Positions 512 through 31,787 of a DNA stretch of 32,942 nt are shown here, one piece after another. The DNA is from Pontiellaceae bacterium (GTDB taxonomy: Bacteria; Verrucomicrobiota; Kiritimatiellia; Kiritimatiellales; Tichowtungiaceae), in the NCBI GenBank assembly GCA_029934215.1, contig JAOZMR010000002.1, forward strand, positions 1 through 32,942. Direction: 5' to 3'. Both the position numbers and the translations under genes were made by a program. Position 1 is the first letter of the stretch. Every line of letters begins with the position of its first letter. The notes under the pieces are model-generated. The model worked only from the letters and a program-made list of their open reading frames with translations. It did no database searches and had not been told where the DNA came from.

Positions 512-2233
512 CTACCAATCTTTGTCGACGTGTATTGGCTGCCCGAGATAGGGGCGTAGGTTTTGGCGCTGGTCTTTTTCGTTTTGTTTCATCGCGTCAA
601 GCAATTGTTGCGCTTCTTCTTCGCTCATTTCGCCCGCTTGTTGTTGCGGCTTCTGTGAGGGTTGGGATTGCTGTTCTTCCGGTTCTTGCTGTTGTTCCTG
701 TTCTTGCTTTTGATCTTCCTGGTTCTGCTGCTCTTGTTGGTCGGATTTGTCGGATTTCTCTTTTTCTTCTTTTGAATCCTTATCGTCCTCTTTGCCTTTT
801 TCTTTTTTCTCTTCCTTCTCCTCTTCTTGTTTCTGCTTTTCGAGCCGCTCTTTCAGGGCGAGCGCGCGTTCTAGGTTTTGTTTGGTGGAGAGGGCGGCGG
901 GGTTTAGCTGGAGCGCTTCTTCTAGGTTTTCTATGGCTTGTGTGGTTGCGGCGAGTCTGGCTTCTAGCTGCTGCTCGGGGGTTGCGGGGAGGGGGGCGAT
1001 TTGCGAGTCGGGGGCGACTTGCGAGTCGCCCGTACAGCTGGCCAGCAGGGCCGTGCCTCGGTTGTGGAGGGCCTTTTGTTTTAGCGTTTCGTCTGTGGTT
1101 TGCGCGGCGGCTTCGCCGAATAGTTTTTCCGAACCTTGGAAGTTTCCTTCTCGGTAGAGGGCGTGGCCTTGGTTGTATTTTTCAATGGCCGGAAATTTTT
1201 CTTCGGCGTCGGCGTTCGGAATGCAGAAGAGTAGAAGGAGGAGCGCGATTTTCGGGTTGCGGAGGAGTGTTTCGGCGAGGAGGAGAAGGAGGGCGGCGGC
1301 GATGAAGTAGCCGGTGCGTTCTTTGTAGATTTTGGCGAGGCGGGTTTCTTGTTCGTCGCGCTGGAGGTTGGAGATGCCGAGTGCGTAGATGCGGTCGAGT
1401 CCGAAGTCGCCGGGGGCGGAGCGGACGTAGAAGCCGCCGGTTTCGCGGGCGAGCTGTTCGAGGAGGGTTTCGTTGAGTGTGCTTTTGATGACGCGGCCTT
1501 GTTCGTCTTTTAGGTAGCCTCGCCCGTCGGCGGCGGGGATGAGTTCGCCTGAGGCGGTGCCGACGCCGATGGAGAAGAGTTTGATCTGCTTTTCGTTTAG
1601 TTTTTTCGCGATTTTCAGGGGGTCGCCGCTGTGGTCTTCGCCGTCGGTGATGAGGATGATGACGCGGTCGGCGGCGGATTCGGTGTCGAAGCTTTCTTCG
1701 GCGGTTTCGAGGGCTTGGGCGATGGCGGTTCCGCCTTTTGGGATGATGCCTGCGTAGAGGTCGTTGAGGGTCATGGTGAAGGCGGCGTAGTCGATGGTGA
1801 CGGGGCATTGGAGGAAGCTGCTTCCGGCGAAGGCGATGAGCCCGATGCGGTCGCCTTTGAGGTGGCGGACGAAGTTGCTGATGGCCCATTTTGCTTGTTG
1901 CAGGCGGTTGGGTTTGATGTCGGCGGCGAGCATGCTTTTGGAGGTGTCGAGCACGACGATGATGTCGAGTCCGCGTTGTTTGACTTCTTCCATTTTGTAG
2001 CCCCACTGCGGGCGGGCGAGGGCGAGGAGGATGAAGAGGAGCGCGAGTGTTCGTAGGAGGGTGCGGCGGCGGTTTTGTTTTGGGTTGTTCCCGGGTATGA
2101 CGGTTTTCCAAACCTTGGAAGAGATGAGTTTGGCGAGCCGCGCGGCGCGTTGGCGGTGCAGAATGATGAGTGCTCCGATGAGCGGGAGCAGAAGGAGGAG
2201 GGCTTTTAAAAATTCTGGAGCGGCGAATCTCAT
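512..2233 (-). CDS. batB: BatB-like vWA domain protein fused to a BatC-like TPR and charged/Q-rich tail
   Basis: N-terminal BatA-type TM segment, LARPQWG, MIDAS DTSKSM, ITDGEDH, then TPR-like YNQGHALY/HNRG and the EEEAQQLLDAM...KDW terminus typical of BatC. Confidence 0.85.
   Translation of the reverse strand: MRFAAPEFLKALLLLLPLIGALIILHRQRAARLAKLISSKVWKTVIPGNNPKQNRRRTLLRTLALLFILLALARPQWGYKMEEVKQRGLDIIVVLDTSKSMLAADIKPNRLQQAKWAISNFVRHLKGDRIGLIAFAGSSFLQCPVTIDYAAFTMTLNDLYAGIIPKGGTAIAQALETAEESFDTESAADRVIILITDGEDHSGDPLKIAKKLNEKQIKLFSIGVGTASGELIPAADGRGYLKDEQGRVIKSTLNETLLEQLARETGGFYVRSAPGDFGLDRIYALGISNLQRDEQETRLAKIYKERTGYFIAAALLLLLAETLLRNPKIALLLLLFCIPNADAEEKFPAIEKYNQGHALYREGNFQGSEKLFGEAAAQTTDETLKQKALHNRGTALLASCTGDSQVAPDSQIAPLPATPEQQLEARLAATTQAIENLEEALQLNPAALSTKQNLERALALKERLEKQKQEEEKEEKKEKGKEDDKDSKEEKEKSDKSDQQEQQNQEDQKQEQEQQQEPEEQQSQPSQKPQQQAGEMSEEEAQQLLDAMKQNEKDQRQNLRPYLGQPIHVDKDW
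992..1035 (-). repeat. REP-like palindrome (GTAC-GGGCGACT-CGCA-AGTCGCCC) with an 18-nt partial duplication, in frame inside batB
   Basis: 8-bp perfect stem at 1012-1031 next to a GTAC tetranucleotide. Direct repeat gggggcga(t/c)ttgcgagtc at 992 and 1010. Translates as CTGDSQVAPDSQIAP. Confidence 0.65.
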
Positions 2234-3201
2234 GATGGAAGCCTCCCGAAGCGTGATAGTGCGATGAGTTTTTCCAAGGTTAGGAAGAGGAGGGCGGCGA
2301 GGAGCCAGCGGCTGGCGGTTTCTTCGTAGCGGGTGAATTGTTGCATTTCGATTTCGGTTTTTTCGAGCTGGTCGATTTGGTCGTAGACGGAGGAGAGGGT
2401 GGCGAGATCTTTGGCGCGGAAGAATTGCCCTTCGCTGATGGCGGCGATTTCTTCGAGGGTGGTGGTGTCGATTTGCTGCGGAGCTTGGTTAAAGAATCCG
2501 CGCCGGACGGGGAGTCCGCCGCCGATGCCAATGGCGTAGATTTTGATGCCGAGCGCGGCGGCGGCTTCGGCGGCATTTTCGGGGGTGAGTTCGCCTCGGT
2601 TGTTTTCGCCGTCGGTGATGAGGATGACGATGCGGCTTTTGGCTTCGCTGTCGCGTAGGCGGTTGATGGCGGAGGCGATGGCGTCGCCGATGGCGGTTCC
2701 GTCTTCAAGCATTCCGGTGCGTAGGTTTTCCAGACGCTGGGTGAGCCAGCTGTGGTCGAGCGTGAGCGGGGCGACGGAGTAGGGGAGCGCAGAAAAGGCG
2801 ACGAGTCCGACGCGGTCGTCGGTGCGTTTTTCGATGAAGTCGCTGATGACTTGTTTGGCGGAGTCGATTCGGGTTTGGCGTCGGCCGTTGCGGGCGAAGT
2901 CTGGGGTGTCCATGGAGGTGGAGAGGTCGAGCAGTAGGACGATTTCTACGCCTTCGGTGTTGACGCGGCTTTCGCTGAGTCCGCGTTGTGGGCGGGCGAG
3001 CGCGACGATGAGGCAGAGGAGTCCCGCAGCGAAGAGGAGGGGGAGAACGGGCTGGAGCCGGACGCTTAGGCTGACGGGGAGTTTGCGCAGGAGTGCGCCG
3101 TCGGGGAAATGCACGGCGGGGCGTCGGCGGCAAATCCGCCACCAGAGGAGGGGCGGGACGAGCAGGAGAAGCCACAGGAGGGTTGGATAAGCAAATGTCA
3201 T
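2230..3201 (-). CDS. batA: BatA vWA domain protein
   Basis: MTFAYP..LWLLLL N-terminus, ALARPQ, DLSTSM MIDAS, GTAIGDAI, ITDGENNRG, IDQLEKTE; ATGA overlap with batB. Confidence 0.88.
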   Translation of the reverse strand: MTFAYPTLLWLLLLVPPLLWWRICRRRPAVHFPDGALLRKLPVSLSVRLQPVLPLLFAAGLLCLIVALARPQRGLSESRVNTEGVEIVLLLDLSTSMDTPDFARNGRRQTRIDSAKQVISDFIEKRTDDRVGLVAFSALPYSVAPLTLDHSWLTQRLENLRTGMLEDGTAIGDAIASAINRLRDSEAKSRIVILITDGENNRGELTPENAAEAAAALGIKIYAIGIGGGLPVRRGFFNQAPQQIDTTTLEEIAAISEGQFFRAKDLATLSSVYDQIDQLEKTEIEMQQFTRYEETASRWLLAALLFLTLEKLIALSRFGRLPS

Positions 3202-3213
3202 GATAAAGAGTTT

Positions 3214-3669
3214 TTAGCCACGAGAGAGCGCAGAGAACACGAAAGAAAGAAAAAGGGAGAGGGAAAGTATGGGCTGGGGGGTGGAACGTTTGAACCGATC
3301 GAGTATGAATTTTTTAATTTTGAATTTGTAGGAACCAAAGTTGATGAGTAATCCGTGTTCGATGTTGGATGAACGAAGGTATCCAATGATTTGTGCGGTA
3401 TGTTCTTCGGTAAATGTTTTGCAGGCTTTTAACTCTACGATTAGAACGCCTTCTACGATTAGGTCCGCATAGTAATCGCCAATTTCGGTTCCGTCTTCGT
3501 CGTAGACTTTTATGGGTTTCTGTTGTTCGACTTTTAATCCTGCTTTTTTGAGACGATGAACAAGTGCGTTTTCGTACACTTTTTCGAGATGTCCAGTTCC
3601 GTGGTATTCATGAATGGCGTATGCTGTTTCCCGAACCTGATCGCATAGTTGTTTGGTTTTTTCATCCAT
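3214..3669 (-). CDS. GxxExxY protein (small PD-(D/E)XK nuclease-like)
   Basis: GHLEKVY motif, YYADLIVEG..IVELKA, AQIIGYL, GLLINFG. The likely start is MDEK at 3669 behind a GGAGGAGG RBS. Confidence 0.9.
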   Translation of the reverse strand: MDEKTKQLCDQVRETAYAIHEYHGTGHLEKVYENALVHRLKKAGLKVEQQKPIKVYDEDGTEIGDYYADLIVEGVLIVELKACKTFTEEHTAQIIGYLRSSNIEHGLLINFGSYKFKIKKFILDRFKRSTPQPILSLSLFLSFVFSALSRG

Positions 3670-3710
3670 TCTATTCCTCCTCCTTTGTGTTCTTTGCGCT
3701 CTCTTGTGGC
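3217..3710. mobile_element. Inverted-repeat-bracketed GxxExxY cassette
   Basis: Arms at 3217-3245 (gccacgagagagcgcagagaacacgaaag) and 3683-3710 (ctttgtgttctttgcgctctcttgtggc) are ~28-bp inverted repeats with 3 substitutions, built from 9-nt subunits. Mobility is inferred. Confidence 0.6.
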
Positions 3711-4615
3711 AAACATTGTTCCTGCATGGTTTGTTCAACAAAAGTTTCCACGGTTTGAAAGGCGGTTTGTAGGGCGGCTTGTTGGGCGTCGGCGCGGGCG
3801 AATTTTACGAGGTCGGCTTGCGTGAAGAGGGGGCCAAGGGCGTCTCGGTGCTCGGGCTGGAGTTTTTCGGTTAGTTCTTCGGTGGTGGATTCGGGGGCGT
3901 TGAGATTGAATCGGTTTTCTAGGTAGTTCCGGAGGATGAGGGAGAGTTGTACGAAGAAGGGTTCGGGTATCCATGGCTCGTTGCGTAGGGCGGCGAGGGC
4001 TTCTTGCGCGATGATGTGCGGTGGGATGATGGGCTCGGGCGTGAAGGGGCTGGCGGGGCTTTTCCAGAGGTAGCGGACGAGGAAGATGATTGCTGTGAGG
4101 AGGAGTATGGCGAGCGCGGAGATCCATAGCCAGCGCGGGATTCGTAGCGGCGGTTTGATGGTTCCGTGGATGTCGGAGAGGATGGTTTTGTTGGTTTCGT
4201 TGAGCGTGCTTTGTACGTGGAGGGTGAGCGGTGGGAGGGGGTGTTCTTTTTCGGTTCCGTCGGAGAGGATGCAAACGGCGGGGTTGGTGGCGACGATCCA
4301 GTCGCCGATGCGGAAGGAGGTGAGTTGGAGGGTTTCTTCGGTTTGTAGGATGTCGTCGGAGAGGGGGCGCGTTTCGATGGATCGGTTTTGTACGACGATT
4401 TGTTTGCCGTTTCCAAGGGTTGGAAAAACGATGCGGCTGTCCGTTGGGTGGCGCGCGGTTTGTGTGAGTGTGACGAGGTCGCCGAGGTGTAGAATGTTGG
4501 TGCTGAGCACGGCTTGCGCGTCGAACCCGCCGGGCGGCAGGGGTTCCACTTTTCCGCAGCCTGTTAAAATGACCGCAAGAAGGCTGGCTAGTATAAGTTG
4601 ACGAAGCTGGTTCAT
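3671..4615 (-). CDS. Bat-operon membrane lipoprotein (DUF4381-like, normally between DUF58 and batA)
   Basis: Lipobox LTGC, one TM helix, PPHIIA..AL..L, LRNYLENRF..APESTTEE, ADLVKFA; operon position. Confidence 0.75.
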   Translation of the reverse strand: MNQLRQLILASLLAVILTGCGKVEPLPPGGFDAQAVLSTNILHLGDLVTLTQTARHPTDSRIVFPTLGNGKQIVVQNRSIETRPLSDDILQTEETLQLTSFRIGDWIVATNPAVCILSDGTEKEHPLPPLTLHVQSTLNETNKTILSDIHGTIKPPLRIPRWLWISALAILLLTAIIFLVRYLWKSPASPFTPEPIIPPHIIAQEALAALRNEPWIPEPFFVQLSLILRNYLENRFNLNAPESTTEELTEKLQPEHRDALGPLFTQADLVKFARADAQQAALQTAFQTVETFVEQTMQEQCLPQESAKNTKEEE

Positions 4616-4622
4616 GTTAATT

Positions 4623-4755
4623 AACCGCGAAAGAACGCAAGGAACGCAAAAAGGGGGACGAGTAGGGCTTTTGCACCGAGAGGTAGTTTTGGAGTGACAT
4701 GATTTGATCTGTGTTCATGGGGTTTCCTTTGCGTTCTTTGCGCTCTTTCGCGGTT
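4623..4755. mobile_element. MITE-like, internally deleted hairpin cassette of the same family as the GxxExxY cassette
   Basis: 28-bp inverted repeats at 4623-4650 and 4728-4755 (2 mismatches), with the same 9-nt subunits (AGCGCAAAG AACGCAAAG). A 33-aa minus-strand ORF (4718..4617, MNTDQIMSLQNYLSVQKP...) starts just inside one arm and reads through the other. Confidence 0.6.
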
Positions 4756-4759
4756 TTAA

Positions 4760-5686
4760 TCATTTGCGGTGGTTTCGGGTGCTGAAGAATTTGATGAAGG
4801 CTTTTTCGTAGGGTTCGCCTGCGAGGAGCTCGATGGTGTCGATGCCGGAGCGTTTGAGCGTGCTGTTGCGTTGGTCGATGCGTTGGGTTTGTTCGTGTAG
4901 AAGCTGGGTGCGTACGGCGGTGCTGGAGGTGTCGATGAGTATGCGTTCGCCGCTTTCGGGGTCTTGCCATTCAACAACGCCGACGCGGGGCCATGCGTGT
5001 TCGTGTTTGTCGGCAATGGTTACGGCGATTAGGTCGTGGCGACGAGCGGTGATTTTGAGCGGCTTTTCGCAGTCGATGGGGAAGATGAAGTCGCTAACAA
5101 GAAAGGTGACGGCTTTTTTGGGATGGGTGTGGTTGAGGAAGTCGAGCGCGGGGCGGGCATCGGTGCCGGTGCTTTGCGGTTCGTGGGTGAGGACTTCTTG
5201 GACGATGCGTAGGACGTGTGCGCTGCCTTTGCGCGGTGGGATATATTTTTCGACTTGGTCGGAGAAGAGGATGAGCCCGATGCGGTCGTTGTTGCGGGTG
5301 GCGGAGAAGGCGAGCATGGCGGCGACTTCGGCGGCGAGGTCGCGCTTGAGCTGCGGGGTGCTTCCGAAGTCGTTGGAGGCGCTGATGTCGACCATGAGCA
5401 TGACGGTCATTTCGCGCTCTTCGATGAATTTTTTGACGTGCGGCGTTCCTGAGCGGGCGGTGACGTTCCAGTCGATGGCGCGTACGTCGTCGCCGGTCAC
5501 GTATTCGCGGACTCGGTCAAATTCCATTCCGCGTCCTTTGAAGGTGGAGTGGTAGCTCCCTGCAAATACGTCGTTGACGGCGTGGCGCGTGCGGATTTCG
5601 ATCCGGCGAACTTTCTTCAGCAATTCGCGGTGGGAGGAGGTGGCATTTCTTATTGAATTGCCTGTTTTGTTGTTTGTTCGACTCAT
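4760..5686 (-). CDS. DUF58 (vWA-like) protein, MoxR-associated
   Basis: GSYHSTFKGRGMEFDRVREYVTGDDVRAIDWNVTAR and EEREMTV..VDISAS signatures. Confidence 0.9.
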   Translation of the reverse strand: MSRTNNKTGNSIRNATSSHRELLKKVRRIEIRTRHAVNDVFAGSYHSTFKGRGMEFDRVREYVTGDDVRAIDWNVTARSGTPHVKKFIEEREMTVMLMVDISASNDFGSTPQLKRDLAAEVAAMLAFSATRNNDRIGLILFSDQVEKYIPPRKGSAHVLRIVQEVLTHEPQSTGTDARPALDFLNHTHPKKAVTFLVSDFIFPIDCEKPLKITARRHDLIAVTIADKHEHAWPRVGVVEWQDPESGERILIDTSSTAVRTQLLHEQTQRIDQRNSTLKRSGIDTIELLAGEPYEKAFIKFFSTRNHRK

Positions 5687-5840: not shown

Positions 5841-6470
5841 ATGATTTCTTCTGTTATATTTGATTTTGACGGTGTTATTGTCGATTCAGAGCGATTGCAT
5901 TGGGCTGCTTTTAATGCGGTTCTTGGCAGTCCGGTGTCTTGGAGCGATTATATCGACAAACTGATCGGGTTCGACGACCGCGATGCGTTTGCTTATCTTT
6001 TTCCAAACATTGGAAAAGTGGAACTGGGTAGTCTGATCGTTAAAAAGGCGGCGGCGTTTCAGATCTTGTTGGAGAGCGATGGCGCGGCGGCTCTTCCTGG
6101 AGCGGTTGAGTTGATTGAGCGTCTCTCTGGAAAATTACCGATTGCAATCTGCTCGGGCGCTCTTCGTGGGGATATTCTTCCAATCATTGGAAGCCTCGGT
6201 GTCGAGCATGCCTTCGATACGATTGTGACTGCGGAGGATACTCCTGCAAGCAAGCCAGACCCTGCGCCGTATCGGCTCGCCGCTGAAAAGCTTGGCGCTA
6301 CGGATGGTTTGGCGATTGAGGATACGCCCGCCGGAATTGCTTCTGCAAGGGGCGCGGGACTGAAGGTGCTAGCTGTGACAAACAGCTATGAAAGGGAGTT
6401 TCTCTCTGAGGCGGACCTGATCGTTAACTCGCTCGAAGGCATCACGCTCGAACAACTAACAGGGATATAA
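5841..6470 (+). CDS. HAD-superfamily phosphatase (beta-PGM/CbbY-like)
   Basis: FDFDGVIVDSE motif I, KPDPAPY, IEDTPAGIASA. Confidence 0.9.
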   Translation: MISSVIFDFDGVIVDSERLHWAAFNAVLGSPVSWSDYIDKLIGFDDRDAFAYLFPNIGKVELGSLIVKKAAAFQILLESDGAAALPGAVELIERLSGKLPIAICSGALRGDILPIIGSLGVEHAFDTIVTAEDTPASKPDPAPYRLAAEKLGATDGLAIEDTPAGIASARGAGLKVLAVTNSYEREFLSEADLIVNSLEGITLEQLTGI

Positions 6471-6491
6471 CACGCAAATCTGGAATTGCCG

Positions 6492-6520: not shown

Positions 6521-6529
6521 CTCAACTCT

Positions 6530-7498: not shown

Positions 7499-7503
7499 GC
7501 CAG

Positions 7504-8391
7504 ATGGAAAAAAGAACCGAAAAATATCGAATTGGCATAACCTGCGGCGACATCAACGGAATTGGCCCAGAAATCGCACGCAAGGCCATTTCTTCCAAGG
7601 ATTGGAAAAACGTAGAATTCACACTCGTTGGTCCGGAGAATCTTCCAAGCCTTGGAAAAGTCGAAGCTAAAGCCTCAATCATTGCGGTTGAAGCCATAGA
7701 ACAAGCCGTGCGCGGTTGTCTTCGTGGCGAACTCGACGCAATGGTCACAGCCCCCATCTGTAAAGAAGGGCTAAAGCTCGCTGGGATCGATTACCCCGGG
7801 CACACCGAAATGATCGCCGCGCTAACCAATACTCAACGCTACGGGATGATGCTGATGGGCAAAGGCCTCTGTGTCATGCTTGTGACCCGCCACCTCCCGC
7901 TCCGCGAAGTCGCCGACGCGCTCACGCAAGAAAACATTCTCGAAGCCATCGAGTTGACCGCTGAAGCGCTCGAAGCGTTCGGACTCCCCAACGGTCGCAT
8001 CGGCGTCTGCGGACTCAACCCGCACGCGGGCGACGGCGGAGCACTCGGACGCGAGGAATCCGAAATTATTTCCCCCGCCATCGAAGCCGCACGCGCCAAC
8101 GGGTTAAACGTCGCGGGACCTGTTCCTGCTGACGTCATCTTTTTCCAAGCGTTGGAAAACAAATTTGATGCGGTGGTTGCGATGTATCACGACCAAGGGC
8201 TAGGTCCGCTCAAAATGCACGCCTTCGACTGCGGCGTAAACATCACGCTAGGACTACCGATCATCCGCACCTCGCCCGACCACGGTACCGCATTTGACAT
8301 TGCTGGCAAAGGCATCGCCGACCCCACCAGCATGATCGTCGCAATCGAAACCGCTATAGCACTCGCAAAGCGGGCGAAGAATGATGGATAA
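7504..8391 (+). CDS. pdxA: 4-hydroxythreonine-4-phosphate dehydrogenase
   Basis: GDINGIGPEI, VTAPICKE, GHTE, GLNPHAG, AMYHDQG, RTSPDHGTAFDIAGKG. Confidence 0.93.
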   Translation: MEKRTEKYRIGITCGDINGIGPEIARKAISSKDWKNVEFTLVGPENLPSLGKVEAKASIIAVEAIEQAVRGCLRGELDAMVTAPICKEGLKLAGIDYPGHTEMIAALTNTQRYGMMLMGKGLCVMLVTRHLPLREVADALTQENILEAIELTAEALEAFGLPNGRIGVCGLNPHAGDGGALGREESEIISPAIEAARANGLNVAGPVPADVIFFQALENKFDAVVAMYHDQGLGPLKMHAFDCGVNITLGLPIIRTSPDHGTAFDIAGKGIADPTSMIVAIETAIALAKRAKNDG

Positions 8392-8451: not shown

Positions 8452-9375
8452 ATGAAATCGATACACATCAAGAAAGTAATGCTTCGAAATTATAAAAGTA
8501 TTGGAAAACTCACTAGCCCTTCCGTGATTCGCGGGCTACTCAACGACCTTGGGCATCGCCCGAATAAAGGTCTCGGGCAAAACTATTTGATCGATTCTAA
8601 TATTCTCGGGATCATCGTGAATGCCGCAGAGATATCCGCGAGTGATCGCTGTCTCGAAATTGGTCCAGGGCTCGGTGCGCTGACGCAGGCGCTGCTCGCA
8701 ACTGGCGCGAAGGTGACCGCGATTGAAAAAGATAAGACGATGGCGTCGCATCTCCGTGCGATGTGGGGCGGGGAGCGTGTGTCGAAGGTCGAGGGTTTGG
8801 TCTCTCAGTCTGCAAATTCGCTAGAGCTTTTGGAGGAGGATGTGCTCGATGTGGATTTGGATGAACTTTTCGCAGGCGGGGTGAATAAAATTATCGCTAA
8901 TTTGCCTTATTCGGTCGGAAGCCGCTTTATCGTCAATGCGCTCGAAGCGCAATCGCTACCGAAATGTATGGTTTTTTTGGTGCAAAAGGAGGTGGCGGAT
9001 CGATTGGTTGCGCAGCCCGGCGGGAAAACGTTTGGTCCGTTAGCTATTTGGAGTCAGCTAAATTACGAGGTGAAGGCCATTAAAAAGGTGAGTCCGAATT
9101 GTTTTTTGCCTGCACCAAAGGTGTGGTCGTCGGTGGTTCGCTTTGAGAAACGCCCCGAGCCGCTGGCGAAGGTGACGGATTACACAACGTTCAAGCGGCT
9201 TGTTAAAACGGTGTTCACTCAACGGCGTAAACAGGTGGGTTCCAACCTTCGGAAAAATCTGCCGGAGTTTTTTCAGGGGTTGGAAGTATGTAAGATTAGT
9301 CCGACCACACGGCCTGAGCAGATTGCGATTGAGCACTGGGTTGAGCTTTCCAACTGTATGAGGGTTGGAGGTTAG
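8452..9375 (+). CDS. rsmA: 16S rRNA m6,2A dimethyltransferase RsmA/KsgA (atypical N-terminus)
   Basis: KGLGQNYL, EIGPGLGALT, ANLPY, QKEVADRL, FLPAPKV, FTQRRK. Start placed at the ATG at 8452 behind GAGGA; uncertain. Confidence 0.9.
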   Translation: MKSIHIKKVMLRNYKSIGKLTSPSVIRGLLNDLGHRPNKGLGQNYLIDSNILGIIVNAAEISASDRCLEIGPGLGALTQALLATGAKVTAIEKDKTMASHLRAMWGGERVSKVEGLVSQSANSLELLEEDVLDVDLDELFAGGVNKIIANLPYSVGSRFIVNALEAQSLPKCMVFLVQKEVADRLVAQPGGKTFGPLAIWSQLNYEVKAIKKVSPNCFLPAPKVWSSVVRFEKRPEPLAKVTDYTTFKRLVKTVFTQRRKQVGSNLRKNLPEFFQGLEVCKISPTTRPEQIAIEHWVELSNCMRVGG

Positions 9376-10461: not shown

Positions 10462-10497
10462 CTCCAAACATTGGAAGTTTTTTTCCAATGTTTGGAA
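10462..10497. repeat. Inverted pair of the 15-bp palindrome forming a long hairpin; possible hcp terminator
   Basis: CTCCAAACATTGGAA-gttttt-TTCCAATGTTTGGAA, between the hcp stop and the tRNA promoter. Confidence 0.7.
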
Positions 10498-12170: not shown

Positions 12171-12374
12171 CTACCACGCGGGAAGCCCAAAAGAGATCAT
12201 TATTTGGCCTGAGGGTCAGCGAAAAGAGTCGTGGGTGGAGTTTTGTATTTGCATCAAACGCGAGGAAGTGTAGCGTTTGCACTAAGGAAGTCGGTGTGGC
12301 GATTGAAAAAACTGTGCTGCCCGCTCATACACATTCCAATGGTTGGAATCGTTTTGCCTACTTGTTTTTATGCT

Positions 12375-16041: not shown

Positions 16042-16153
16042 GAGGGTGCCTTTCTGTTTGTGTGTAGAGTTGAGTATTTTTCAAAGGTTGGAATGTAGAT
16101 GATTACTCTTTTTTTGCTAGCGTTATTTTGATTAATTTTTGCTTCCGCTGATT

Positions 16154-18705: not shown

Positions 18706-18775
18706 GTCTATTTTTCCTTAGACTGTATTTCTTCTGCAGGGCAAATGTGTATCGTTTTCAAAAGGCAAGTCATTT

Positions 18776-19672: not shown

Positions 19673-19673
19673 T

Positions 19674-20861: not shown

Positions 20862-20894
20862 TTTGCTCTCAGCGTTTTTCGATGACTCATTTTT

Positions 20895-22882: not shown

Positions 22883-22915
22883 ATCTGGTTTCTCCTTTAG
22901 AACATCTGTTTTCGA

Positions 22916-24031
22916 CTACACTTTACAGCATTTATTTTTAAAAAGCTTTTTCTTTGTTTTTTGGCTACGCGCCGTATGCCCTACGTTGATGAGAAGCCCG
23001 ATCATTATGGAACTGACGAGCAGGCTCGATCCTCCGTAGCTAATGAAAGGCAATGCAATGCCTTTGGTTGGGATGGAGCCGGTGACGACCGCGAGATTGA
23101 TCAATACTTGGAGTGTAATCATGAACGTGATTCCTTGGGCGGTGAAACGCCCGAAGTCGTCGTGCGCCCGTTCGGCGATCTGAAGTCCGCAGATGAAAAT
23201 CACGACGAAGAGAACAAGAACCGACCCCGTTGCAATGATCCCGAGTTCCTCGCCGATGATTGGGAAGATGAAGTCGGTATGCGCTTCTGGAAGATAATCT
23301 AGTTTTTGGATGCTAGCGCCCAACCCTGCCCCAAAGAGCCCGCCTGAAGCAAAAGCACTTTGTGCATTCACCAACTGCCACGCACCGTCTTGCGCATGTA
23401 GCTCTGGGTTAAGAAAAGCGAATACCCGCCCTATCCGATTTGGATTAAAAGCAATAATGATGGCAAATAGACCCGCGCCAAAGAGCAATAAGCCCGTCAA
23501 CCACGAGGTGCGAGCACCTCCAGTGAAAAGCAGTATAAAAACAACAATACAGACCAGAAATGTTGTCCCGAAATCTGGCTCCAAAATCAGTAAACAAACA
23601 AACACCCCAAGCCCTATAAGCGGAACCAGAAGCCCTTTTTTGAATGTATGCATATAACGACGGCGTTGGTCGATCCACCATGCAGAGGCCAATATGATTC
23701 CTATTTTTGCAAACTCGGATGGCTGGAACGTCTGGTTAAAAATCGTTATCCACCGTCGACTTCCGTTCACGGGTGTTTCTGTTAGGACATAGAGTAGTAA
23801 AAAAATAGTTCCAACAGCGGCTGGCAACGCCATTTTGCGAACAAAGCCAAGATCAATTCTGGAACAGACAATAGCTCCGGCGACCGATAAAAGAAGCCAC
23901 AAGAGCTGTTTCTGCAGATAGGATGTCAGGTAGTCCCCCTTCAAAAAGCTGGCACTGAACATCATTACGACCCCAACGGTCATCAAAATGAGAACGGCTC
24001 CGGTTAGCATATGAATCGTTCGACGTTGCAT
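22916..24031 (-). CDS. ftsW: SEDS peptidoglycan polymerase FtsW
   Basis: NGSRRWI, FQPSEFAK, EPDFGT, LPEAHTDFIF, GEELG, PFISYGGSS; located downstream of murD. Confidence 0.9.
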   Translation of the reverse strand: MQRRTIHMLTGAVLILMTVGVVMMFSASFLKGDYLTSYLQKQLLWLLLSVAGAIVCSRIDLGFVRKMALPAAVGTIFLLLYVLTETPVNGSRRWITIFNQTFQPSEFAKIGIILASAWWIDQRRRYMHTFKKGLLVPLIGLGVFVCLLILEPDFGTTFLVCIVVFILLFTGGARTSWLTGLLLFGAGLFAIIIAFNPNRIGRVFAFLNPELHAQDGAWQLVNAQSAFASGGLFGAGLGASIQKLDYLPEAHTDFIFPIIGEELGIIATGSVLVLFVVIFICGLQIAERAHDDFGRFTAQGITFMITLQVLINLAVVTGSIPTKGIALPFISYGGSSLLVSSIMIGLLINVGHTARSQKTKKKLFKNKCCKV

Positions 24032-24045
24032 AGGGGACAGTTGTT

Positions 24046-24098
24046 GGGGGACGGGGGACGGGAAGAGCTGACAGCGGTCAGCGGTCAGCTTTCAGCTC
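24046..24098. repeat. 7-nt tandem repeats and hairpin between LysM and ftsW
   Basis: (GGGGGAC)x2, then CAGCGGT-CAGCGGT-CAGCTTT-CAGCT closed by GAGCTGA/TCAGCTC. Confidence 0.55.
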
Positions 24099-24107
24099 CC
24101 AAAACCA

Positions 24108-25265
24108 TTAATTTGGAAGCGGTATGAGAAGTTTTGTGCCGAGCGTTACGACCGAAGGATCGGTGATCCCGTTGAGCTCCATGATCTCTTTCGGCGAGCT
24201 GCCGAACTGGCGAGCGACGTCTTCTAAGGTTTCGCCGGGATAAAGCACATGCTCGTAAAGTGGAGCGGAAGAGGCAGGCGCTAGCGGGGCAAGGTCCGCA
24301 AGAGGTGCCAATTCGGGTGCTTCTTTTTTCTCCTCTACCGGTGCAGGTTTTGGCGCAGATTCGGGAGTGGGTTCAGGGGTAGGTTTTGTAGAGGATTCAG
24401 GAAGGTCGGTTACGTTGATTTCGCCTTTTTTGGGGATACTCAGGCTTTTGCCTGCAATGATTCGGTTGCTGGTGAGCGCGTTCTTTGCTTTGATTTCGTC
24501 AACACTAAGCCCCGCACGGTTCGCAATTTTAGACAGGGAGTCGCCACGCTGAACCACATAGGATGATCCTTGTTTAATTGGGTCTTGTTTGGACGGTTTG
24601 GATGGTTTGGAGCTTTTTTGCTTTTTCGGCGCTGGAGACTCTAACCGAGCCACAGGCTTCACCGCCCCAGAAAGACCAGGGATGCGAATTTTCTGACCGA
24701 CAACCAATCGACCCGGATTCGAAAGCTGGTTATGTTCCGCGACTTTCCGCCAAGAACAATCGTACTTAGAGGCAATACAGGAGAGCGTGTCGCCTTTTTT
24801 GACCACATACAGTTTTCCCGTTACATCCACGGTTTTCTGAGCTTCAGACTCAACATCGCCTCCTGAAATGCGTATTTCTTGCCCCACCATGATGGCGTTA
24901 GGATTTGATATATTGTTCTCTTTAGCCAACGTTTTCCAGGAAACACCATGCATTGAGGCGATCTTGGCGAGGGAATCTCCCTTTTTAACCACATACACCT
25001 GAGCGGATGTATCAATCGGCTCTGGGGCTACATATATTTCGGACGTGATCTCGGGTGGAAGAAGAATAGGTTCGGGAAAGTCAAACTCCTCAATTTGCTC
25101 CACGGGATACTCATCGATCGTATACATAGGCGGAGTTTGCGGAGACGAGCCGTACGGCCAATTCAGCCAGTCGATGGGTGAGCGTCTAGTTGCGCAACCC
25201 TGCATTAATAAAAAACCAGTCAACGCAATTAAATGCAGAGCCAAACGAAATACTTTTGAGTTCAT
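24108..25265 (-). CDS. LysM-repeat lipoprotein (4 LysM domains)
   Basis: Lipobox MQGC; YVVKKGDSL, YVVKKGDTL, YVVQRGDSL and HVLYPGETL repeats; Pro-rich linkers. Confidence 0.88.
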   Translation of the reverse strand: MNSKVFRLALHLIALTGFLLMQGCATRRSPIDWLNWPYGSSPQTPPMYTIDEYPVEQIEEFDFPEPILLPPEITSEIYVAPEPIDTSAQVYVVKKGDSLAKIASMHGVSWKTLAKENNISNPNAIMVGQEIRISGGDVESEAQKTVDVTGKLYVVKKGDTLSCIASKYDCSWRKVAEHNQLSNPGRLVVGQKIRIPGLSGAVKPVARLESPAPKKQKSSKPSKPSKQDPIKQGSSYVVQRGDSLSKIANRAGLSVDEIKAKNALTSNRIIAGKSLSIPKKGEINVTDLPESSTKPTPEPTPESAPKPAPVEEKKEAPELAPLADLAPLAPASSAPLYEHVLYPGETLEDVARQFGSSPKEIMELNGITDPSVVTLGTKLLIPLPN

Positions 25266-25292
25266 GATGAAACCTTCCTTTTTTTCTTATAC

Positions 25293-26597
25293 CTATCCAA
25301 AATCCCCGGCGTACTCGTTAAACAAGCACCCCACCTCGCGAACAAAAGCATCGCCACGTTCGCCAAAACTATGAAACTGATCGAAACTGGTGCACGCGGG
25401 AGAGAGCAAAACGGTGTCACCCGACCTTGCATGAGCCGCTGCGGCAGAAACAGCTTTTTCGAGTGTTTCGCAGGGCAAACACTCCACGGAAGTTGCCCAC
25501 GCCGCATGCATCGCTTCAGACGCTTCACCGATAAGATATAGACGCGAAACGTGCTTCACCAGAAAATCTTTTGCAAAACTCAAATCTATCTCTTTGGCTC
25601 GACCACCCGCGATCAAATGAATGGGCCCAGAAACCATCCGAAGCGCCGCACACATTCCCGCTAAATTGGTGGCCTTAGAATCATCAATAAAGCGGACACC
25701 ATTGATTTTCGCAACCGTTTCCATCCGGTGCGGAAGCGGCTCAAACGTACGGGCTGAGGCCTCCAGTGCATTCTGTGGCAGACCACAGGCGTTGGCAACA
25801 GCGGCAACGGCCGCAGCGGCTGAGCCGAGCACATCGTTATCGAAATAGGTGCCGCTCAAATCGATCGCCCTCACCTTTCCCGCCTGAAAACAGTAATCGG
25901 CCCTCACCCCCATGCCGAAGGTTTCGAAATCAACCACGACTGGAGTGCCTGGATTCTCTTGGCAAAAGTCAAACGGAAGGATCGCGACCTCATTCAGCGT
26001 CATTTTTTCGAAGAGCCGCAATTTGAGATTGCGATACGTCTCCATATCGCCATGACGATCCAGATGGTTGGGAAGGATATTGAGAAGCACGCCGATCTCT
26101 GGGCAAAAATCTTCGACGGTTTCGAGTTGAAAAGAACTCACCTCAATCACCAACCAATCAGGAACCTCAGGCAACATAACAGCTGCGGAAACAGGGAAAC
26201 CATAATTACCGCAAGGAACTCCAACCTTCCCAGCGTGCGCAAGAGCATCCGCAATCCACTTCACAACGGTGCTTTTCCCATTAGAACCCGTAACCGCGAT
26301 AACCGGGCAACGCCGACGCGACCACCCAAGCTCAAGTTCTGAAAGAAGCGGAACGCCGCACGAAATCAACTCCTGAATCCACGAATGCTCCAGCGAAAAA
26401 CCGGGGCTCACAATTGCAATCTCCGGGTGAAACGTCGAAACGTGAGATTTGAAACTCTTGATATCGCACGCATCTTCGTTCAGAACAAGCGTCTCCACTC
26501 CTTCACTACGAAGAAGCGCCTCCGCCGCCACACCACTGCGCCCGCAACCCAGCACCAGGGCTGATTTATACTCTGATTTTTCTCCTACATTTTTCAC
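25293..26597 (-). CDS. murD: UDP-N-acetylmuramoyl-L-alanine--D-glutamate ligase
   Basis: VLGCGRSG, VTGSNGKST, EVSSFQL, HLDRH, DDSKATN, LLSPACTSFDQF. The start (GTG at 26597) is uncertain. Confidence 0.92.
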   Translation of the reverse strand: MKNVGEKSEYKSALVLGCGRSGVAAEALLRSEGVETLVLNEDACDIKSFKSHVSTFHPEIAIVSPGFSLEHSWIQELISCGVPLLSELELGWSRRRCPVIAVTGSNGKSTVVKWIADALAHAGKVGVPCGNYGFPVSAAVMLPEVPDWLVIEVSSFQLETVEDFCPEIGVLLNILPNHLDRHGDMETYRNLKLRLFEKMTLNEVAILPFDFCQENPGTPVVVDFETFGMGVRADYCFQAGKVRAIDLSGTYFDNDVLGSAAAAVAAVANACGLPQNALEASARTFEPLPHRMETVAKINGVRFIDDSKATNLAGMCAALRMVSGPIHLIAGGRAKEIDLSFAKDFLVKHVSRLYLIGEASEAMHAAWATSVECLPCETLEKAVSAAAAHARSGDTVLLSPACTSFDQFHSFGERGDAFVREVGCLFNEYAGDFG

Positions 26598-26893
26598 ATC
26601 AAAACCCAACCCTAAACGTAGCGCCACTCCACGCCACAACCTTGCACCATTCAGAAACGGAGAGCAGAGTAGAACAGAGCATCCAACCTGTCCAGCTCGC
26701 AGGTGAACACATTCCAAACACGCTGCGTAGAATCTAGCGCAGACCAATCTTTGCAACCCGCTAGGGTGGAGACCATTAAGAAAACAGCTGCCGCTTCTTT
26801 TTTGGGCTGGAACACACAAACCTTGGACTCCACCCGAAACAACTGCTACCATTCCCCAGCAAATTCAATACACATAAAATTTAAACGACAGTC

Positions 26894-28003
26894 ATGCCTA
26901 CAACGATGGTTCCTCTACACATTATCCAACTCCTGCCCGAACTCAACCAAGGAGGCGTCGAGCGCGGCACGGTCGAACTGAGTCGCGAGCTCATCAAACG
27001 CGGACACCAAAGCACCGTCATATCTGCCGGCGGCACGCAAGCGACGCAAATTGAAAAAGACGGAGGTCGTCACATCACCCTCGACGTATGTTCGAAGAAC
27101 CCTCTCACCCTTTTACCCAGAGTCGCAAAACTTGCAACCGAACTCTTCAAACTGGATGCAGACATTCTGCATCCACGAAGCCGCGTCCCCGCATGGCTTT
27201 GCCATTTCGCCAACAGAAAGCTAAAAACCCCATGCGTCACCACCGTTCACGGATTCAACAGCGTCAACAAATACAGCGAAATCATGACCAAAGGCGAGCG
27301 TGTGATCTACGGCAGCGCTGCCATCAAAAAATACGTACTAAAAAACTACCCAGTTAACGAACAAAACCTGCGCTACGTACCACGCGGAATCGACACCGAA
27401 CACTTCAACCCAACCACCGTCGACCAGCCCTTTATCGACCGCTTCAAGCACCAACACAAACTCACAGGAAAAACCATCATCACCATCGTCGGACGGATCA
27501 CAGAATGGAAAGGTCACGACACCTACATTCGAGCGCTCGCAGAAGTACAAAAAACCAATCCCGAGGTTGTAGGTGTCGTCGCGGGCGGGATATGGCACGG
27601 CAAAAACGACTTTTTCCAAGGGTTGGAAAAACTCGCGGCAGATCTAGGCGCAGACATTCGTTTTGTAGGCTCGCAAACACAGGTGCGCGAAATCTATGCA
27701 CAAAGCGACCTTGTGGTCTCCGCCGCCTCCACCAAAGCCGAAACCTTCGGTCGAACCGCCGCTGAGGCACTCGCAATGAACACGCCCGTCATCGCTAGCT
27801 CGCACGGCGGATCCCTCGACATCATAATCGACGGCGAGAACGGTCTCTTCTTCGAGCCCGGAAACGACATCGAACTAGCCGCAAAAATCAACCAGGCGCT
27901 ACACATCAAATTTTCCAACCTTCGGAAACACATTGAAAACAACTTCAGCCTAAACCGCATGACCGAAGACGAGCTAGCGGTTTACAGAGAACTCACTTCA
28001 TAA
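26894..28003 (+). CDS. Family 4 glycosyltransferase
   Basis: [40 protein letters not shown]. Confidence 0.88.
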
Positions 28004-28023
28004 ACAGCACGAAAGAAGCAATA

Positions 28024-30588
28024 ATGAAAAATAAAGATTTTTTTAAAACCTACGACGCCCAGATTCAGACCCGCGCAAAAGACGGAATTCCACCGCTCGC
28101 ACTAAGCCGAGAACAAACCGAGGATGTGATTGAGCTCTTAAAGAATCCGCCAGCTGGGAAAGAGAACGAGCTTGTGGATCTGATCACAAACCGAGTAAAC
28201 CCAGGAGTGGATCCTGCGGCGCAGGTGAAGGCAGAATTCCTATTTACCGTCGCCTGCGGCGACGAATCAACATCGCTCATCACCCCAGAACGTGCAGTCG
28301 AACTGCTGGGCACGATGATTGGCGGTTACAATCTCGACGGGCTGATCAACCTGATCGAGGCGCAAGGACCTCTGGCCCAAGCCGCAGCAACCGCTCTAAA
28401 AAACATGGTTCTATCCGTAAATCGTTTCGAGGATATCCAGGCGCTGGCGGACAACGGAAACGAAACAGCAAAAGAGATTCTGGCTTCGTGGGCGGCTGGA
28501 GAATGGTTCACCTCACTTCCGGTGGTCGCAGAGGAGATTGAATCGGTTGTTTTCAAGGTGGAAGGCGAAATCAATACCGACGACTTTTCCCCAGCCTCTT
28601 ATGCGTTTACTCGAGCGGACATTCCTTTGCACTCAACGTGCATGGGCGGAACACTTTTCCCAAATGGCCCGCAGGAAATTGCAGATCTAAAAGAAAAAAC
28701 AGATCTACCTGTCACGTTCGTAGGCGATGTCGTTGGCACAGGATCGTCGCGCAAATCGGCATGCAACTCCCTGCTATGGCACATTGGAGAAGATATTCCA
28801 TGCGTACCCAACAAACGTCGAGGCGGCATTGTGATCGGTCGCACAATTGCTCCAATTTTCTTTAATACCGCAGAAGATTCAGGGGCGCTTCCGATCCAAA
28901 CAGATGTATCGATGCTATCCACCGGCGCAATCATTAAGGTTTTTCCAAACCTTGGAAAAATCACAGACTCGGACGGAAACGTGATCTCCACATATCCAGT
29001 GAAGCCCGATACAATTCTGGACGAATACCGAGCCGGCGGACGCGTCCCTCTCATCATAGGCAAACAATTAACCGAAAAAGCGCGTACAGCTTTGGGCATG
29101 AGCTCTCTCGATGAATCTGGCATCTTTGTGGTGCCAGAAAACCCAACACTCAAAAAGGGCCAAGGATATACGCTCGCTCAGAAACTCGTCGGAAAAGCCT
29201 GCGGAACAGACGGAATCCTTCCAGAAACCTCTTGCTTGCCAAAAATGACGACAGTCGGCTCGCAGGACACGACCGGCCCCATGACAGCCGGCGAAATCAC
29301 AGAACTCGCATGCCTGAAATTTAATGCAGACCTCGTGATGCAATCATTTTGTCACACCGCCGCATATCCAAAACCGACAGATGTAATCACACACGCCACG
29401 CTTCCGAACTATATTACAGAACGCAAAGGCGTCGCCTTGCGCCCAGGCGACGGAGTGATCCACTCCTGGCTCAACCGCTTGCTCGTTCCAGACACCGTCG
29501 GAACTGGCGGCGACTCACACACCCGCTTCCCAATGGGCCTTTCATTCCCTGCAGGATCCGGGCTTGTCGCGTTCGCTGGTGCGCTCGGGGTGATGCCGCT
29601 AGACATGCCAGAATCGGTTCTAGTTCGCTTCAGCGGGGACCTCCAACCAGGAATAACGTTGCGCGACGTTGTCAACGCAATTCCGCACCAGGCCATCCAA
29701 GACGGACTATTAACCGTTGAGAAAACGAACAAGAAAAACATTTTTGCAGGGCGCATCTTAGAAATGGAAGGGCTACCAGACATCAACGTCGAACAGGCCT
29801 ACGAACTGACAGATGCGTCCGCCGAGCGTTCCGCCGCTGGAGCAACGATCCAACTCAATCGCGAACCAATTGTTGAATTCCTCAAATCGAACATCACACT
29901 CATGGAAGAGATGATTCAGGGCGGATATAGCGATGCAGGTACGCTTGCGAAACGAATAAAAGATGTTAAAGAATGGATCGAGAACGGAAAGCTAATGATA
30001 GCGGACAAAAACGCAGAATATGCAGCCGTCATAGAGATTGATCTGAACGAGATCACCGAGCCGATTCTATGTTGCCCGAACGATCCGGATGACGTAAAAA
30101 AACTCTCCGAGGTACAAGGCGAGAAAATCGACGACGTATTCATTGGCAGTTGCATGACCAACATTGGACACTTCCGAGCCGCAGGCGAAGTTTTCGAAGG
30201 AGAAGGATTCACCAACGTCAACCTATGGATCTGCCCGCCGACAAAAATGGACGAAGTTCAGCTCAAGAAAGAGGGATACTACTCCATCTTTAGTGCGGCA
30301 GGTGCTCGCATCGAAATCCCAGGATGCTCTCTATGCATGGGCAACCAGGCACGCGTCCGCGACAACGCGGTTGTCTTTTCAACCTCGACACGCAACTTCA
30401 ACAACCGTCTAGGAACAGGTGCGCAGGTATACCTCGGCTCAGCAGAGCTTGCATCCGTGGTGGCGCTGAAAGGCGAACTACCAACTCCAGCCGAATACCT
30501 GAAAACCATCTCGCCAAAACTCGACGGCAAAACCTCCAAAATCTACACCTACCTAAACTTCGATCAAATGACCGAATTTCATGTGTAA
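28024..30588 (+). CDS. acnB: Aconitate hydratase B
   Basis: [65 protein letters not shown]. Confidence 0.97.
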
Positions 30589-30646
30589 AAAACCCATCAA
30601 CAACCCCAAACATCACCCTCACACAAAAGGGGCGTTTTGTAGGAGA

Positions 30647-31552
30647 GTGAGACAGATCTTTATTTCATGTTTTCTGGTTCTGGGGCTGCGTCAGAATGCG
30701 CATGCAATTCTGGCGGGTGGGGAGTTTGATTTGCCGTCGGATAGTCCTTCTGGTCGGATTGATTCTTTGAGCGAAAACTCGCCGTATAATTTTGTTGGGG
30801 CGTTGGAGATTTCTACAGGGAGTGGAAGCTATTTCGGGTCGGCATCGGCACTTTCGTCGCACTGGGTGCTGACTGCAGGGCACAATGTGGACTTCAACGA
30901 TGACGGAAACGTTGACGCTGGCTTGTCCGTAAATTTTCATCTTCCAGGGTTTGGAACTTATGCAGCCAGCAGTTATTCGATTCACCCGAGTTTTACAGGC
31001 TTTGGAAATCCGTCTATTCATTACGATCTTTCCCTGCTCTATTTTTCTGATCCGTTGCCTGACCTGCTATTTCCAACCCTTGGAAACTCGTTGTCGATTG
31101 GCGACACAGCAACGATGATCGGCTACGGACGTTCAGGCTACGGAAGCTGCGGCTACACAACAGGAGCATCACTGACAGATCGGCGCATCGGCTACAACGA
31201 AATCGACGAGTTTGAAACATCCGGCGACGGCACGCTTTATCGCTACGATTTTGACGATCCAAACACTGGCGACGGACTGGGCAATGCCATCGAAACGATC
31301 ATCGGACCAGGTGATTCTGGCGGTTCCTTGCTTATCGGAAACTCACTAGTTGGCGTAAACACATTCACAGAAGGCTACGGCGGACGGTTCGGAGACATAG
31401 GCGGCGGCATTGCACTGAATAACGAATGGGGATGGATTGGTGCGACCACAGGACTAACCGTCCCCGAACCTGCAAGCGTCATTCTGTTCTTACTTGGTGC
31501 ATTCACCATGATTCTACGCCGACGTATTTACCGAGCGAAAGAAAACCACTGA
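30647..31552 (+). CDS. Trypsin-like serine protease with PEP-CTERM sorting signal
   Basis: WVLTAGH (His), YDLSLL (Asp), GDSGG (Ser), C-terminal VPEP + TM + RRR. The start (GTG at 30647) is uncertain. Confidence 0.82.
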   Translation: MRQIFISCFLVLGLRQNAHAILAGGEFDLPSDSPSGRIDSLSENSPYNFVGALEISTGSGSYFGSASALSSHWVLTAGHNVDFNDDGNVDAGLSVNFHLPGFGTYAASSYSIHPSFTGFGNPSIHYDLSLLYFSDPLPDLLFPTLGNSLSIGDTATMIGYGRSGYGSCGYTTGASLTDRRIGYNEIDEFETSGDGTLYRYDFDDPNTGDGLGNAIETIIGPGDSGGSLLIGNSLVGVNTFTEGYGGRFGDIGGGIALNNEWGWIGATTGLTVPEPASVILFLLGAFTMILRRRIYRAKENH

Positions 31553-31787
31553 AATAACAAAAGAATTGGACATAAAGACAGGTGCACAACGAATACAAAA
31601 AAACAACAAACGGACCTGTTCATCAAACGAATTACCGCCCCACTTTGGATGCATCTTGACCGCACGAAACAAACCATTTAGATTTGCCAGAAAAATAGAG
31701 CAAAACGAAATGCGAGTTTCCAAAGGTTGGAAGATTGAACAGGCATCCTGCTTATACAAATAGAGCATTTTCAAAAAGGAGATAGAT

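Follow-up and report, generated by a model that had tools for sequence, protein, structure and literature searches.

A helically phased 15-bp palindrome in genes and intergenic regions of many Kiritimatiellae genomes

Why should one interrupted palindrome recur through a series of unrelated genes on a single bacterial contig? The question is raised by a 32,942-nucleotide stretch from a Pontiellaceae bacterium (GCA_029934215.1, contig JAOZMR010000002.1, positions 1 to 32,942, forward strand; this whole stretch is hereafter the window), in which a preliminary description had counted 14 perfect and 11 one-mismatch copies of the 15-bp word TTCCAA-NSN-TTGGAA. Our recount gave the same numbers, with a mean of 0.00 perfect copies in 100 dinucleotide shuffles, and the five two-mismatch copies described earlier (3746, 9271, 22392, 22504 and 30993) are all present. 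A sixth, which had been missed, lies at 23698 in ftsW, has a T centre and is probably a chance match. Altogether, 31 matches with at most two mismatches (14 perfect, 11 with one and 6 with two) stand against 2.6 expected. The central base is C or G in all 25 perfect and one-mismatch copies, and most of these are genic as had been claimed, 19 lying in open reading frames (ORFs) and 6 between genes (10462, 10483, 12334, 13661, 16079 and 31718).

The signal is genome-wide and not confined to the window, which is contig C75 of the source genome (G000; 2.74 Mb in 349 contigs, 90% complete, with parB among the genes absent from the assembly). G000 holds 810 perfect, 678 one-mismatch and 405 two-mismatch copies, and all 42 of its contigs of at least 15 kb bear sites. 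A spacer of three bases alone is enriched: it accounts for 810 copies, and no other length between 0 and 11 gives more than 3. Of the perfect sites, 96% have C or G at the centre, and a T-rich left flank and an A-rich right flank extend the site to about 19-21 bp, in line with the tracts noticed around the window copies. The TCC/GGA core is nearly fixed because 613 of the 678 one-mismatch copies depart from the word at the outer T or at one of the two inner A (357 by A to G), and TCC-N7-GGA is the most invariant part of the motif. T2 and A14 are near-invariant as well, which gives the motif the T-N11-A dyad of LysR-type sites. Taking perfect and one-mismatch copies together (1,488 sites, used below for gene overlap, frame and partner counts), 906 (61%) lie inside called genes and 519 of 1,971 called genes bear a site; the genes come from our own caller, which gave 78% coding sequence and missed some genes. 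All three reading frames are used (378/291/237), and the peptides FQxLE and S[KN]xWK occur 253 and 108 times where 6.7 and 3.1 are expected. Non-coding sites are no denser in divergent than in convergent gaps (75 in 66.5 kb vs 63 in 34.6 kb). Long site-free stretches correspond, by gene names read by eye, to ribosomal protein, rpoBC, flagellar/chemotaxis and island regions. The single-contig chromosome of G018 is fully covered with no terminus gap, its 92 sampled sites falling 27/25/18/22 by distance from dnaA, which shows neither exclusion from nor confinement to the terminus.

Copies inside genes maintain a DNA word rather than a peptide, as had been proposed: besides the use of three frames and the placement of sites at poorly conserved residues, 477 perfect coding copies are observed where shuffling synonymous codons with the protein kept leaves 14.1, and shuffling codon order leaves 0.4. 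The suggestion that the motif drives amino-acid change is borne out by alignment with G002, a congener with 2 perfect copies, of which 2.34 of 2.9 Mb (81%) was compared (217 orthologous genes; of their 381 sites, 364 could be aligned). Protein identity falls from 0.67 at control positions to 0.45 at the sites. Although gaps are commoner near sites (11%) than at control positions (4%), 323 of the 364 sites are gapless, and there is no insertion bias because G000 is longer in 18 of the near-gap cases and shorter in 23. Coding sites arose by substitution, not insertion, and with amino-acid change. Genes 55-65% identical to G002 carry 9.0 sites per 10 kb, those above 85% identity 0.8 and those without a match in the compared part 3.0. 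In the window genes, motif-rich G018 has its sites at the same codons but with altered spacers, and the corresponding codons of motif-poor G010 and G017 show 2-9 mismatches, often 2-4, a pattern which may reflect ancestral sites decaying once constraint was lost. As a separate observation, the flagellar and chemotaxis operons of G000 (on C211, C80 and C120; ~38 kb) are site-free and have almost no match in the compared part of G002; possibly they were recently acquired, or sites were selected against there.

The copies are also phased on the helix. Among 164 pairs less than 46 bp apart in G000, 150 lie at 21-23, 30-32 or 41-43 bp, with peaks at 31 (n=55), 22 (n=27), 32 (n=24) and 42 bp (n=13). 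Their linkers are unrelated in sequence, and de-duplication removes almost no close pairs and leaves the spacing result unaltered. G018 has 22 of 23 close pairs at exactly 22, 31 or 42 bp. At longer range, phase was measured as R of the distances between sites in the same core gene and compared with 2,000 jittered sets. The 74 pairs at 46-200 bp (from 42 genes) give R=0.62 and the 52 pairs at 200-400 bp (from 25 genes) R=0.60, with 0/2000 jittered sets as high in either case; R is 0.38 at 400-600 bp and 0.34 at 600-1,000 bp, values reached by 13/2,000 and 20/2,000 sets, respectively. Distances within core genes follow multiples of 10.44 bp up to 400-600 bp. With the phase fixed at zero, the best-fitting period is 10.435 bp, unconstrained DNA having a period of about 10.5 bp, and there is no signal at 10.2, 10.8 or 11.1. 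This period and range rule out an alpha-helix artefact (10.8 nt) as the source of the phase. For 73 pairs without a net indel relative to G002 phase is retained (R=0.65), and for 50 pairs with an indel between the sites the G000 distance is phased (0.65) whereas the equivalent G002 distance is not (0.19). The 90 same-gene pairs without an intervening weak site give R=0.48.

The copies in the window are as follows.

1127-1141: one mismatch, in the batB-like gene, encoding FQGSE
2106-2120: perfect, in the batB-like gene, encoding SKVWK; perfect at the same codons in G018, with 4-7 mismatches in G010, G017 and G002
2272-2286: one mismatch, in the batA-like gene, 166 bp (15.9 turns) from 2106
3746-3760: two mismatches, in ORF 3671-4615 (minus strand)
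4411-4425: perfect, in ORF 3671-4615 (minus strand); common to G018
6001-6015: perfect, in the HAD hydrolase gene
6178-6192: perfect, in the HAD gene, 177 bp (17.0 turns) from 6001
7593-7607: perfect, in pdxA, encoding SKDWK; common to G018
7643-7657: perfect, in pdxA, adjoining a deletion relative to G002; common to G018
8143-8157: perfect, in pdxA, encoding FQALE, 500 bp (47.9 turns) from 7643
9240-9254: one mismatch, in rsmA, opening a 31-bp pair that G018 also keeps
9271-9285: two mismatches, the partner of 9240 at 31 bp
10462-10497: intergenic pair 21 bp apart, one-mismatch and perfect, between tRNA-Ser and the 3' end of hcp
12334-12348: perfect, intergenic, upstream of the lpxI-like gene
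13006-13053: two one-mismatch sites 33 bp apart in the lpxI-like gene, which reads VPKVGH where G010 and G017 have VPKHGH
13661-13675: one mismatch, intergenic
14274-14288: perfect, in ORF 13976-14590 (minus strand)
16079-16093: one mismatch, intergenic
16542-16556: one mismatch, in ORF 16154-17215 (minus strand)
22392-22518: two two-mismatch copies (22392, 22504) in ORF 21731-22882 (minus strand)
27614-27628: perfect, in the GT4 glycosyltransferase gene
27913-27927: one mismatch, in the GT4 gene, 299 bp from 27614 and out of phase
28943-28957: perfect, in acnB
30942-31085: three copies (30942 with one mismatch, 30993 with two, 31071 perfect) in a PEP-CTERM protein gene
31718-31732: perfect, intergenic, upstream of an Rpn-family gene

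The two copies at 10462-10497, after hcp, pair into a hairpin of -21.1 kcal/mol with U-rich flanks, which may double as a terminator. Reading of the motif at the RNA level was considered and rejected: four single sites fold at only -4 to -9 kcal/mol, three of them inside the shuffle range, and Rfam matches amount to one tRNA. No site with at most one mismatch occurs in the 11 kb from 16557 to 27613, which contain a low-GC C5 DNA methyltransferase and a probable restriction gene (18776-20861). A GxxExxY gene and its degenerate neighbour (3214-3741 and 4617-4970) are motif-free inside and flanked by short hairpin-type repeats (RAQRTQRR / KERKERK), an arrangement that seems typical of small mobile cargo genes.

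How widely is the motif spread? In an even draw of 100 genomes of the class Kiritimatiellae and 201 other genomes of the phylum, at least 50 perfect copies were found in 30 class genomes and at most 4 in each of the 201. Scoring by core pairs (TCC-N7-GGA twice, 31-32 bp apart) raises the 30 to 42 because the added genomes use dialects: each of these 42 has 12-1,242 pairs, with no more than 7 in any of the other 58 and no more than 11 in any genome outside the class. The lineage specificity suggested earlier therefore stands, the paired motif marking 42 of 100 sampled Kiritimatiellae and none of 201 other genomes; further, named records with phased triplets are nearly all Kiritimatiellae among 80 listed of 124 loci. 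Other families carry the motif as intergenic arrays of 3-7 copies, with spacings alternating between 22 and 30-31 bp in rumen members and with identical units in G342. Family f12 uses the dialect TTCCGA-NSN-TCGGAA with the 31/32 spacing unchanged, G210 has another form, and the dialects alter both arms together. An R/Y-degenerate pair pattern gave no pair in families f5 (0/20), f19 (0/13) and f7 (0/11). Within the genus, perfect copies range from 2 to 811 (~300-fold), and in some congeners the motif is decayed or lost; the compared part of G002 has no replacement word at 31/32 bp and no replacement dialect.

Several further observations concern repeats in these genomes. A different word, GTTCCACGTAAAAC, is repeated at 31-bp spacing at G066 C37:170887-170993 and on many G066 and G096 contigs, and is probably a further, asymmetric dialect in genus g10, resembling parS. 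Motif pairs at 31/32 bp occur at seven viral loci from six contigs. Phage contigs L358:2920-4640, L360:5001-5046, L354, L355 and L357 bear such pairs or arrays, beside small helix-turn-helix-like ORFs on L358 and directly after the capsid gene in others, and some look Mu-like by eye. At G021 C88:4458-5558, G266 C27 and G007 C26, motif copies bracket GC-rich hairpin repeats with a TGTAG foot, often keeping a 94-105 bp spacing; these repeats may insert beside bound sites. The compared stretches of G002 are rich in CCGG words (GCCGGC 684 times vs 160 expected in 400 kb), perhaps a methylation-linked bias. G000 has a second palindrome, GTCGA-N2-TCGAC, in 95 copies within a repeat of period 73-80 bp, with cas-like genes seen by eye on C184; we rejected it as a related signal, as it belongs to a CRISPR-like array and is unrelated to the motif.

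What, then, might read the motif? The motif is real, and for its mechanism we infer, as the probable answer, a putative binding site of an oligomeric protein with an architectural role, which would keep DNA on one face of the helix and so organise the chromosome. Of the functions put forward in the preliminary description, the helical phasing of the sites speaks most for nucleoid organisation; methylation-driven drive leaves the phasing unexplained, and self-DNA uptake is kept as an alternative although the competence genes compared do not follow the motif. A dimer would read the two half-sites, TCC and GGA, which lie a turn apart, from adjacent major grooves, the A/T flanks adding contacts, and its footprint of about 21 bp would make 22 bp the closest packing. 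Dimers would join a larger assembly with the preferred partner three turns away, and a stiff filament or surface-bound array would carry the rotational register onward, so that selection would favour a new site only when its orientation on the helix matches that of its neighbours. Such a role would be architectural rather than tied to promoters. The dyad, the one-turn half-sites, the co-varying arms, the 22-bp closest approach and the three-turn partner together suggest a dimer that assembles into a larger oligomer, and since phase is kept over 40 turns this would be more than a tetramer, perhaps a stiff filament or a rotation-fixing surface. Oligomers that bind palindromes whole turns apart are described for NrdR and Ss-LrpB in the available portions of PMC12051234 and PMC4046817. 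In vivo loop fits in Escherichia coli gave helical periods of 11.0-11.6, as excerpted from PMC1762422; unlike these, the period here is near that of unconstrained DNA, which argues against free looping in supercoiled DNA. More tentatively, and with somewhat less than even confidence, we propose that a large clade of the Kiritimatiellae encodes a rotational setting of its chromosome, in which a dedicated protein scaffold (a filament or membrane-bound array) would read a 10.44-bp lattice of palindromes and selection for in-register sites would be strong enough to rewrite hundreds of proteins. If true, this would amount to a bacterial chromatin programmed by sequence, with gains and losses inside single genera; no counterpart to it has been described.

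A number of observations weigh against the architectural protein. Congeners live without the motif, G002 among them, and none of nine candidate readers (Lrp, DnaA, LysR, NrdR, ParB, ComEA-type and three orphan ORFs) tracks it. The phase does recur in five other genomes, where 57 of the 75 listed pairs at 90-120 bp (out of 81 found) and 30 of the 46 at 185-215 bp lie within 2 bp of a whole turn (39% expected), but this signal stems from four congeners and some pairs are orthologous between genomes, hence not independent. G034, from the sister family, has no long-range phase (mean cosine 0.07 and 0.11 on 20 and 9 pairs). Non-coding pairs in G000 are weakly phased (R=0.23 at 46-120 bp and 0.14 at 120-200 bp), perhaps because indels and inserted hairpin repeats scramble the register. 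Only 327 of the 1,488 sites have a close phased partner, and the flanks of 870 isolated sites show no 10.4-bp A/T periodicity and therefore no trace of wrapping. Finally, at 10.44 bp the period matches relaxed DNA and not in vivo loops, for which 11.0-11.6 was fitted (PMC1762422), and it would suit extracellular or incoming linear DNA too.

The dimeric reader proposed earlier agrees with the dyad anatomy, which is that of a dimer site, but no such protein emerged among the nine candidates and it remains conjectural; in phylogenetic profiles, none of the candidate DNA-binding and competence genes follows the motif. The Lrp/AsnC domain PF01037 is present in 165 of 201 genomes, some of them motif-less, and no copy turned up in motif-rich G135 or G338; no motif site lies upstream of the Lrp gene in 13 loci. 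DnaA, or a domain IV paralogue, is rejected because 63 of 64 genomes have one full-length DnaA and canonical boxes, not the motif, flank dnaA. For LysR, PF00126 was not found in G000 (90% complete), and G135 has only a weak short match. NrdR is 83% identical in motif-less G002, and the motif is absent before the ATP-cone gene for ribonucleotide reductase on G000 C179. That gene is preceded by separate NrdR-like boxes, and a word resembling an NrdR box also lies upstream of dnaA (G000 C142:4400-4500). As to ParB or a Noc-like paralogue, a single canonical ParB exists beside the motif with its helix-turn-helix unchanged in 4 genomes, no paralogue appeared in the 5 genomes searched, and canonical parS pairs are present separately in motif-rich and motif-less genomes. 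The ComEA-type helix-hairpin-helix domain PF12836 is patchy and does not follow the motif in 65 genomes, not being found in motif-rich G000, G007, G016, G069, G081, G177, G216 and G260. Among the orphan ORFs, an 81-aa Cro-like ORF after dusB is present in 40 of 64 genomes, including motif-less G002, G017, G025, G030 and G031, and was not found in f8, f9 and G260; a 135-aa coiled-coil ORF on C3 occurs in only 4 of 40 genomes; and a 58-aa ribbon-helix-helix-like ORF (L363, G000 C265:2740-2916) occurs in 12 of 40, rich and poor alike. The last, restricted to families f1 and f2, comes as 1-6 close paralogues in each genome that has it. A gene-loss screen against the compared part of G002 gave no clear candidate; a reader may be missing from either side because 81% of G002 was compared and G000 is 90% complete, or it may be a retained gene with changed specificity. 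No shared gene family was seen beside dense clusters or arrays (124 loci) or at 31 residual-site loci.

Four other explanations deserve weighing. The motif might be a self-DNA uptake signal spread by molecular drive, in which a multivalent surface receptor (pilus or pore) would prefer relaxed incoming DNA with same-facing sites, so that phased sites would accumulate through biased uptake and recombination. The relaxed-DNA period would fit, and G000 has ComEC-, DprA-, ComM-, ComF-like and pilin genes (motif-based calls), yet motif-less G002 retains ComEC, DprA, ComM and ComF homologues, PF12836 was not found in the eight motif-rich genomes listed above, and intergenic arrays of 3-7 copies exceed what an uptake tag needs. 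The known uptake sequences are, to our knowledge, non-palindromic. Sites lie at poorly conserved residues, peak in moderately conserved genes and are thinner in genes without a G002 match, a distribution that resembles the one reported for uptake sequences in the available text of PMC2817400; on balance we consider uptake unlikely. Operators of a global regulator with NrdR, Lrp or LysR geometry (a tetramer or octamer bound across palindromes that lie three turns from each other), with the coding copies as low-cost decoys or roadblocks, seem to us quite improbable. The 31-32 and 41-42 bp spacings match NrdR box pairs and the 6-3-6 form is one base per arm and the centre away from the Ss-LrpB consensus, as given in excerpts of PMC12051234 and PMC4046817, and residual sites in low-count genomes are often near gene starts. 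But 61% of sites are in called genes, gaps between divergent genes are not preferred, none of Lrp, NrdR and LysR follows the motif, and phase at 200-400 bp inside genes would be needless for an operator; the site-free ribosomal protein and rpoBC operons, which would suit a regulator, owe their lack of sites in part to the strong conservation of their proteins.

A bias from a methyltransferase or from repair, of the kind proposed for HIP1 and centred on the invariant CC-N7-GG core, would account for TCC-N7-GGA being the most invariant part and for abundance varying about 300-fold in one genus; we think it very improbable, as it leaves the 22/31/42 spacings, the 10.44-bp ladder, the central S and the A/T flanks unexplained. 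No more credible is descent from a mobile or tandemly amplifying repeat (like a repetitive extragenic palindrome, REP, or a miniature inverted-repeat transposable element, MITE), the phase being a by-product of 22- and 31-bp unit duplication. Identical-unit arrays do exist in G342, and sites flank hairpin repeats in some congeners. For coding copies such an origin is largely refuted by the gapless alignments without insertion bias, the unrelated linkers, the phase that persists without an intermediate site and the site positions kept between species while the spacer changes; with 61% of sites genic, the motif also differs from REP/MITE repeats in general, which arise by insertion, are mainly extragenic and share a conserved longer unit.

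If a protein reads the motif, this would be a new way of organising a bacterial chromosome, and the helical repeat of the bound DNA (10.44 bp) would be legible in the genome itself. The dialects and losses that occur naturally within a single genus open a direct way to identifying the reader. Protein phylogenies and annotation in the class are biased by the motif, given its presence in 519 of 1,971 called genes, and it is usable as a binning marker. In the literature searched by motif and lineage (mostly open-access main texts), we found no description of the motif, or of a palindrome in this lineage, among the matches listed.

Several known kinds of site come close to the motif. HIP1 of cyanobacteria, a hyper-abundant, lineage-specific palindrome used in all frames and of unknown function, is alike; it is 8 bp, contiguous and methylated by cognate methyltransferases. 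The motif is 15 bp, interrupted and, unlike HIP1, set at fixed 22/31/42 spacings on a 10.44-bp ladder, and no cognate methyltransferase was identified for it. As stated earlier, the word differs from this octamer and from canonical parS. The pairs parS/ParB, NBS/Noc, SBS/SlmA and matS/MatP are likewise structural palindromes that also occur inside genes, at tens of copies with an origin or terminus bias, where the motif has about 1,500 copies evenly spread. The arms TTCCA/TGGAA equal the inner arms of parS with 3 extra bases between, but parS is a 16-bp palindrome with a CG centre and few copies near the origin, which the motif does not fit. The HRM motif of Lactococcus lactis, a non-palindromic 13-mer with copies spaced near multiples of 10 bp, may be the nearest kind; HRM is abundant genome-wide and rare in phage and transposon genes (PMC2526093).

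Uptake sequences of the Pasteurellaceae and Neisseria (uptake signal sequences and DNA uptake sequences, USS/DUS) share hundreds to thousands of copies, presence in genes, raised peptides, poorly conserved residues and rarity in genes without homologues, so far as the available text of PMC2817400 goes, and the motif shows the same over-representation genome-wide and in coding sequence at variable residues. It differs in being a perfect dyad, helically phased and with no link to competence genes found, and its peptide inflation is about 35-fold against about 2-fold for USS/DUS. NrdR tetramers bind palindromes three or four turns apart in a helix-phase-dependent manner, but NrdR boxes have another sequence and are confined to ribonucleotide reductase promoters (PMC12051234, as excerpted). 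Ss-LrpB binds regularly spaced 15-bp palindromes, TTGCAAAATTTGCAA, cooperatively, and these are 6-3-6 in form like the motif (excerpts of PMC4046817 and PMC2715240); sites of feast/famine regulatory proteins are given as abcdeWWWedcba with an A/T-rich centre in the part of PMC2715240 available, where the motif has S in 96%. We found no described motif that combines a reshaped proteome with a rotational register maintained across about 40 turns within conserved genes. Abundant proteome-reshaping motifs (USS/DUS, HIP1) and helix-phase-dependent operator pairs (NrdR, Lrp) are known separately, and the present analysis adds what the motif costs in amino acids, its phase over long distances within genes, its dialects, its loss from some members of a genus and the candidate readers that were excluded.

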